From: a virus
DNA length: 16,912 nt
Direction: 5' to 3' (one strand)
IMG/VR virus record: IMGVR_UViG_3300035438_001155
Coordinates: 1-16,912 of that record
Part shown: piece by piece, positions 3,282 to 3,734 of the stretch
Layout of the letters: the number at the start of each line of letters is the position of its first letter
How positions within the stretch are numbered: the first letter of the stretch is position 1
Program-made: the position numbers and the translations under genes
Notes under the pieces: generated by a model
The model's input: the letters and a program-made list of their open reading frames with translations, nothing else
Databases searched by the model: none
What the model was told of the DNA's origin: nothing

Positions 3282-3734
3282 ATGAGAATCCAGGAATTAC
3301 AATCTTCTGTCACCTATTATCACGGCAGCATGGACTATCTGCCAGTGGGAACCATACTAACCCCTCGCAATCAAGAGTATGAAAAGGATTGGGAAAACAC
3401 AGATTTCTATTCTGTGTTGGAACATTATAGACCCATGAACAAGCCAGCACACAAAAACAGTGTGTTCATGGTGACTGATCCCGATGATGTGGACCTGGCA
3501 GGTGGTGGTACTGAGTGGCTCATGACTGTGAAACCTCTGGGACCAGTAAGTCGTCATGATCTAAATTGGAGCAGTGAGATCAGTATGTTGTTGAGTGATG
3601 GCCATCGAAACGCTGTTCAAGCAGGCCAGCAGCCTGGCCAATCGCCGACCGATCGGCGCCCTGCTGCCGGAGTGGGTGCGGGAGATGATCACCCCGGAGG
3701 CAGGATGAGCGCGGAGACAAAATTCGCACCATGA
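3282..3734 (+). CDS. hypothetical protein; the 3' third runs through a GC-rich foreign-looking segment, so the true stop is uncertain
   Basis: ATG at 3282, but AAGG lies only 1 nt upstream, so the start is doubtful; alternative ATG at 3330. No recognisable domain (…YYHGSMDYLPVGTILTPRNQEYEKDWENTDFYSVLEHYRPMNKPAHKNSVFMVTDPDDVDLAGGGTEW…). Confidence 0.35.
   Translation: MRIQELQSSVTYYHGSMDYLPVGTILTPRNQEYEKDWENTDFYSVLEHYRPMNKPAHKNSVFMVTDPDDVDLAGGGTEWLMTVKPLGPVSRHDLNWSSEISMLLSDGHRNAVQAGQQPGQSPTDRRPAAGVGAGDDHPGGRMSAETKFAP

Follow-up and report, generated by a model that had tools for sequence, protein, structure and literature searches.

The analyzed DNA, hereafter the window, comprises 16,912 nucleotides of a virus (IMG/VR virus record IMGVR_UViG_3300035438_001155, positions 1 to 16,912; one strand). 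Our study centered on an open reading frame (ORF) at 3282-3734 on the forward strand, which starts as a gene with an ADP-ribosyltransferase (ART) fold and continues through a short island of high GC content. From left to right, the locus contains a reverse-strand GIY-YIG homing-endonuclease-like gene (2145-2987; matches to Pfam GIY-YIG, SegE and NUMOD3), situated ~300 bp upstream in a cassette spanning 2123-3219, the retained 5' part of the ART-fold gene (3282-3605, forward), a foreign high-GC filler (3606-3697, forward), the remnant of a short RF1-like release-factor gene (3698-3859, forward) and an intact saccharopine-dehydrogenase-family gene (3873-5276, forward; Pfam PF03435 and PF16653). 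A 36-aa mini-ORF (3598-3708, forward) covers the filler in a frame different from that of ORF 3282-3734.

With three homing-endonuclease-like genes located within 10 kb (HNH, 599-1273; GIY-YIG, 2145-2987; phrog_655, 9965-10537; all on the reverse strand), the region is unusually rich in selfish endonucleases. The GIY-YIG gene product is a possible source of double-strand breaks nearby. Further features of the window include a forward-strand sequence at 347-481, just upstream of tRNA-Gln (497-571), that matched the Rfam tRNA model with 44.8 bits. Its anticodon loop is enlarged by a 53-nt insertion and its variable arm is long; ARAGORN did not call it, and it could represent a type II tRNA that is disrupted or contains an intron. 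Additionally, a gene at 7155-9644 (forward) encodes an 829-aa protein with a Pfam major vault protein shoulder domain (PF11978), a faint Vault_3 match and no PHROG match.

Composition and extent of the high-GC island

A sliding scan of the whole window at 115 bp located the GC maximum, 0.687, at a start position of 3600. The mean in the same scan was 0.461 (s.d. 0.067) and the runner-up peak reached 0.626, in agreement with the GC jump described in the original prediction. Comparison to related phages, presented below, delimits the foreign DNA to 3606-3697, corresponding to ~92-95 bp with a GC content of 0.685 versus 0.46 for the window; its right edge is ambiguous over 3697-3703 because of an AGG/AGGCAG microhomology. 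Of the interval first proposed for the island, 3596-3712, the core from 3606 to ~3697-3700 is indeed foreign, but the margins are not: positions 3596-3605 belong to the native gene, and sequence from ~3698-3704 onward is part of the release-factor remnant.

Read in the frame of 3598/3607, the filler is open and resembles coding sequence. Its codon-position GC values in this frame (frame +1, that of ATG 3598) are 0.63/0.50/0.90, a three-base periodicity rarely matched by chance (186 of 100,000 shuffles contained any phase that was equally GC-rich; p ~0.002). Codons ending in G or C account for 31 of 37 in the mini-ORF and 27 of 30 inside the truly foreign part. The codon-position GC of the mini-ORF is 0.62/0.51/0.84, and GC3 in the other window genes is 0.33-0.59, so that the codon usage is, as suspected earlier, unlike that of the remaining genes. 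An antisense frame of equal GC3 (GVIISRTHSGSRAPIGRRLARLLACLNSVS) is less coding-like, with GC1 below GC2, and had no PHROG match. The filler is single-copy and shares no similarity with the rest of the window or with the related contigs L008 and L012. It is DNA foreign to this phage lineage and bears a high-GC coding signature. Internal duplication from the window or its relatives was considered as a source and rejected, as no similarity was found.

A short and compositionally distinct insert close to homing-endonuclease genes could in principle be a miniature mobile element or its footprint (a MITE, an IS or an intron remnant), as had been proposed, or a structured regulatory RNA. However, we detected neither terminal inverted repeats nor a target-site duplication at the island beyond 8-13-nt chance matches, and no second copy was present in the window, in relatives or in IMG/VR. 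Furthermore, the island is accompanied by a deletion and is not a clean insertion. Its folding energy did not exceed that of shuffled sequences (z values of -1.07 and -1.16 on the two strands), Rfam returned no match (best E value > 2), and a terminator-like site was absent from 3590-3720. On these grounds, a mobile element or RNA appears extremely improbable.

Truncated genes at a deletion joint

Alignment to collinear relatives revealed a discrete breakpoint on either side of the island. On the left, the nearest relatives (L008-L011) align at 93.5% nucleotide identity over 3220-3605, and homology to the more distant L012 extends to 3601. On the right, homology to L012 restarts at window position 3698, equivalent to L012 position 4683 and located within the 3' end of the release-factor gene; by blastn, window 3698-4300 and L012 4683-5287 are 80.7% identical. 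Tblastn and blastn against L012 assigned 3698-3859 to the last ~50 codons of this gene including its natural stop. At the protein level, only amino acids 135-184 of the 184 in L012 remain (window 3707-3856, 84% identity by tblastn), and the remnant is non-functional because the GGQ region is deleted. The saccharopine-dehydrogenase-family gene, which forms the conserved right flank of the deletion, follows the release-factor gene in L012 as well.

Relative to L012, the window lacks positions 1780-4682 of that contig, a stretch of 2,903 bp that contains seven ORFs (among them GGACT, aldolase II and four small ORFs) and approximately three-quarters of the release-factor gene. In L008, one small ORF lies between the ART-like and release-factor genes. 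The loss relative to this closer type would be ~1.2 kb, a figure estimated from sequence since the L008 contig ends inside the release-factor gene. At the right joint, the filler end and the release-factor gene have AGG in common (or AGGCAG with a 1-nt gap, that is, 3-6 nt), which looks like junctional microhomology. The island is absent from all relatives and sits exactly at the deletion joint, with discrete breakpoints against the collinear genomes. The suggestion of a repair scar is thereby supported.

ORF 3282-3734 joins codons 1-108 of a gene from a ~147-aa phage protein family to a 43-aa read-through tail (3606-3734) that is non-homologous, rich in Gly, Pro, Ala and Arg, and replaces the family consensus (alignment A1). 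Its 182 homologues in metagenomic protein data, nearly all 146-150 aa long, cover just the first ~72% of the ORF and end near codon 108, the exception being the near-identical P0001. Alignment identity with the family reaches NWSSEISMLLSDGH and is followed by the unrelated tail. In 17 of 17 aligned full-length homologues, the C-terminus of ~40 aa follows the consensus SPEVxxAAxNYWxGVPHxNESVWEYLTPxAxIxAVEEY, which we did not find in any frame of the window. As anticipated, translation confirmed that the ORF reads through the island in another frame, and its last 43 residues are an artefact of the fusion that differs from the strongly conserved C-terminus of the homologues. The original prediction named conservation of the segment in frame 0 among homologous phages as a refutation, and the outcome was in its favor, with no relative keeping the island segment in frame 0.

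The 150-aa ORF is nevertheless uninterrupted and was called (P0001) in NCBI, ENA and Logan data, as would be expected if the island were normal coding sequence of unusual composition that specifies a lineage-specific C-terminal domain. This explanation is at odds with the homologue coverage and with the different 40-aa C-terminus, comprising a helix and two core beta-strands, that is shared by all aligned full-length members. In addition, codon-position GC in the frame of the tail is not coding-like, and the tail derives in part from the release-factor remnant, translated out of frame. We therefore give normal coding hardly any credence.

Structure comparison recovered an ART beta-sandwich core for the family. 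The C-terminal part that was lost corresponds to one helix and the last two core beta-strands. With residues from ~109 onward replaced, the complete ART catalytic core, including the C-terminal strands and the invariant W-E, is absent from the window copy. Among 22 invariant positions, seven are lost (A118, Y122, W123, W134, E135, L137 and A141), of which E135 is the putative catalytic residue by analogy to the H-Y-E class. Measured against known ART-fold proteins (BC2332/2aua, Arr, Tpt1/KptA, AcrF11, PARP and diphtheria-toxin-like proteins), the window copy, being without the last helix and two strands, is a fragment at best. Decay is not evident in the retained 108 codons: of seven amino-acid differences to L008, five are specific to L008 with L012 as the outgroup. 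For dN/dS, substitutions in this part are too few, and most fall on the L008 branch. As the retained codons show no such signs, we can only presume that the truncated protein lost its function.

The joint was recovered from many assemblies. The island and both flanks are base-identical in all 17 contigs fetched (L001-L007 and L013-L022), which originate from different samples and from the Logan, NCBI, ENA and JGI pipelines. In the JGI index, the mini-ORF occurs in 37 blocks and was called as a gene on 38 contigs (P0121). The abrupt compositional switch over ~95 bp might point to a chimera of a phage contig with reads from a high-GC organism. However, phage sequence borders the island on both sides, and at least 17 independent assemblies, which stem from different samples, four assembly pipelines and two strain types, agree on it exactly. 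It is, therefore, not an assembly chimera, a scenario whose probability we put at next to nil.

The two strain types of island-bearing contigs differ in the 1.1-kb upstream cassette at 2123-3219, which is replaced in around two-thirds of contigs that are otherwise >99.8% identical. In the window and around one-third of contigs, the cassette comprises the 280-aa GIY-YIG endonuclease gene, a strong promoter and tRNA-Arg; the other type has a different 248-aa ORF and no tRNA-Arg. As both types carry the island, it predates diversification of the cassette. An un-ameliorated GC3 of 0.90 and an identical island in strains with flanks that differ by 0.04-0.7% point to a comparatively recent event. 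The 'recent' capture of the original prediction holds only in this relative sense, the patch being already common to two strain types.

Additional observations concern the cassette and its edge. At the cassette position, the relatives L008 and L012 contain a DUF559 endonuclease. A perfect (12/12) sigma-70 consensus, TTGACA-16 nt-TATAAT, is present at 3066-3093 (forward), ~24 nt upstream of tRNA-Arg(tct) at 3117-3194. Right after this tRNA, at ~3217-3247 (forward), follows a sequence that resembles the 3' half of a tRNA (GGTTGGAATCCTGCCAGGGGCGCCA). Exactly at 3220, the alignments with relatives and with the other strain type restart; L053 has tRNA-Leu(caa) in the corresponding position, immediately 5' of its ART-like gene. 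The element resembles the remains of a tRNA at a further mosaic joint.

A candidate donor for the filler

No donor of the whole 92 bp emerged from phages, plasmids, IMG/VR, GTDB genomes or JGI metagenome contigs, nor from two protein searches on a very large scale. With blastn, the island had only chance matches in cultured phages and plasmids (E >= 0.008), and tblastn against plasmids gave none. Queries of IMG/VR with an exact 29-mer and three degenerate codon patterns yielded 0, 0, 0 and one chance match, and two degenerate patterns in the GTDB genomes (596 Gb) yielded 0 and 30 matches, with all 30 at chance level when extended.

A lead was obtained by a degenerate-codon scan of JGI metagenome contigs for LP(D/E)WVR(D/E)MI, a pattern taken from the island itself. 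Of three matches, two were positioned at the extreme C-terminus of ORFs. One match was a 229-aa protein that aligned over its full length with phrog_36907 (function unknown) and retrieved a family of 82 proteins of ~217-230 aa. Members end in WLLHYMDTKxxGYDYKAINAERIAMLPEWVREMI followed by 2-10 variable residues, and their C-termini read AERIAMLPEWVREMI(TPE..) before the stop codon. Shortly upstream of the stop, they share the motif (A/G)(M/L)LPxWV(R/Q)xMI, which is also found in the island. The filler 3' sub-segment at 3652-3700 (forward), encoding IGALLPEWVREMITPE, resembles this extreme C-terminus, and the window counterpart reads IGALLPEWVREMITPEAG up to the stop. Among high-GC members, P0135 ends in IGMLPGWVREMITPEGV (WVREMITPEGV, stop) and P0138 in IAMLPDWVREMITPGAA (WVREMITPGAA, stop).

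At the nucleotide level, window 3662-3700 matched the end of the P0135 gene (L059 3635-3673) at 37 of 39 positions, including an exact run of 29 nt. L059 is a phage-like contig with 63% GC, and the codon-position GC of its P0135 gene, 0.64/0.42/0.91, mirrors that of the island. When the family HMM was searched against the six-frame translated window, the mini-ORF was the top match (10.1 bits, E = 0.016), with nodes 211-224 placed on ALLPEWVREMITPE. The similarity to the family spans only 14-17 residues, which we estimate would not reach significance in a database-wide protein search. Just upstream of the motif, the conserved block WLLHYMDTKxxGYDYKAINAERIAM is absent from the island, which instead has IETLFKQASSLANRRPIGAL. 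In a collinearity test of this 5' half against the family, 1,024 of 2,000 shuffles scored as well. Because the 5' half matches nothing, the donor is tentative; from sequence resemblance, we judge a phrog_36907-like origin to range from evenly balanced to slightly favored. Possible sources are a divergent or unsampled family member or a composite filler. With the family, the island shares the C-terminal motif LP(E/D)WVREMI(TPE), with a stop 2-5 residues later, and the codon-position GC profile but not the upstream conserved block, and it represents a fragment, not a family member.

The earlier assignment to a captured high-GC bacterial gene can, on this basis, be retained in part. A foreign high-GC coding signature is present, but a bacterial source was not corroborated: plasmid, GTDB and protein searches were empty, and the sole lead is a phage gene family that covers the 3' half. 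Members of this family are encoded by jumbo phages that infect high-GC hosts, such as Xanthomonas phage XacN1, Microbacterium phages Big4 and Zooman and Burkholderia phage BcepSauron, and also lie on large viral contigs of 23% to 58% GC. In a metagenome contig of 68% GC (L058, positions 1-130), we additionally noted an ORF end, RLTASRVAGLPDWVREMIGAV before the stop, that represents a divergent high-GC phrog_36907-like member. Divergent members of this kind may be closer to the true donor.

The mini-ORF was also considered as a gene in its own right. Our translation from ATG 3598 to TGA 3706-3708 reproduced the predicted peptide exactly. Its frame is open with coding-like periodicity, the JGI caller predicts it on the 38 contigs mentioned above, and it carries the most conserved C-terminal element of a widespread jumbo-phage family on a patch that is fixed in a population present in many samples. 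Such features would suit a real, expressed small gene with a C-terminal module (LPEWVREMITPE) that mimics or competes with the phrog_36907-like tail of a rival phage or host. The ends of the mini-ORF argue against this and do not support the view of a coherent captured reading frame: the ATG stems from the native flank, where GAT GGC CAT of the truncated gene is read out of frame, and the TGA lies in release-factor-derived sequence. Moreover, no Shine-Dalgarno-like sequence is present at the proper distance before ATG 3598, and selection is not measurable because all copies are identical. No homologous small ORF was found elsewhere; a padded query of the 36-aa peptide against 5.8 billion proteins retrieved only itself, phmmer against 1.84 billion representatives retrieved itself and P0204 only, and PHROG scans of short peptides in three frames retrieved nothing. 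P0204, a 957-aa tandem-repeat protein, was rejected as a homologue, its score being the sum of seven weak repeats. We consider an expressed small gene very unlikely; on sequence features, the mini-ORF is probably fortuitous and not a working gene.

Recombination history and implications

Mosaicism generated by illegitimate or homeologous recombination is established for phages (PMC2327257). The island is another instance of this known kind of mosaic joint and belongs to no family of genes or elements. In all likelihood, it is the scar of illegitimate (non-homologous or microhomology-mediated) recombination, composed of a deletion joint and ~92 bp of foreign high-GC filler that is itself probably functionless. 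The locus resembles mosaic or novel joints of phages in its sharp breakpoints relative to collinear genomes, in breaks that fall inside genes, in the combination of a multi-gene deletion with a short unrelated insertion, in the possible 3-6-nt microhomology at one joint and in a donor composition that has not yet ameliorated. It differs in that the filler is very short (92 bp), that the donor is matched over the 3' part only and that the source genome is ~20 GC points richer, which would be unusual for phages of the same host. A literature search for filler DNA in bacteriophages found nothing among the papers covered.

The event may have started with a break or stalled fork in an ancestral phage, within a region rich in homing endonucleases. 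Repair would have joined codon 108 of the ART-fold gene to the last ~50 codons of the downstream RF1-like gene, thereby removing ~1.2 kb if the ancestor was L008-like, or 2.9 kb by comparison to L012, with ~92 bp of unrelated high-GC coding sequence, copied or ligated, becoming trapped at the joint. In the simplest route, one event would suffice, through end joining that captured DNA or through microhomology-mediated template switching. The trapped piece would represent an internal or 3'-terminal gene fragment of a high-GC genome, most likely that of a co-resident high-GC phage or prophage with a phrog_36907-like gene, and the patch itself would do nothing. As a consequence, the ART-like protein lacks its conserved C-terminal third with the invariant W134 and E135, the release-factor gene and the intervening genes are lost, and two ORFs arose fortuitously, namely the 150-aa chimera and the 36-aa mini-ORF.

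Alternatively, a larger high-GC cassette (a phrog_36907-like gene or moron) might have been inserted first and later deletions might have left the 92 bp. The fragment seems to stop no more than three codons from where genes of the candidate donor family naturally terminate, in line with a gene end that was once part of the genome. The interval between the ART-like and release-factor genes is, furthermore, a hot spot for gene flux, since its gene content differs among L008, L012 and L053. Set against this two-step history are the absence of any intermediate with a longer foreign segment among >37 island samples or relatives and the need for at least two or three events instead of one. We regard it as possible but fairly unlikely.

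Within the preferred reading of a recombination scar with trapped filler, a more specific proposal is that the filler is a templated insertion, made during break repair from the phrog_36907-like gene end of a co-infecting or resident high-GC jumbo-type phage. We consider this version unlikely. If true, the patch would be a physical record of phages with 46% GC and ~65% GC replicating in the same cell, and fillers of foreign composition at deletion joints could be mined from metagenomes as markers of co-infection or host linkage. A bolder variant would have the retained LPEWVREMITPE tail expressed and interfering with the protein of the rival phage.

The main value of the locus lies in annotation and in providing a clean worked example. 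Databases should carry neither the 150-aa ORF, a truncated chimera, nor the 36-aa 'gene' from JGI data, which is probably fortuitous, as a protein family. The locus illustrates that recombination joints can be recognized by an abrupt rise in GC with three-base periodicity, and it records how a natural phage population lost the core of an ART-fold gene and a release-factor gene. Identification of the donor would provide rare direct evidence that phages of widely different GC content exchanged DNA.

Further observations concern the intact forms of both affected genes. The ~147-aa ART-fold family (window 3282-3605, P0002-P0120) is unannotated and common in metagenomic phage contigs, with at least 182 clusters. 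No sequence-level family was found for it in Pfam, PHROGs, NCBIfam or the PDB, and tblastn returned no match in 50,697 cultured-phage records. The full RF1-like gene (L012 4141-4845; L008 from 2704) contains PPT and GGQ motifs and is without domain 1. In both L012 and L008, it is interrupted by a single in-frame TGA (ATNLG, stop, LITS) at what we take, by reference to E. coli RF1, to be a conserved Trp position of release factors. This suggests regulated read-through or recoding.
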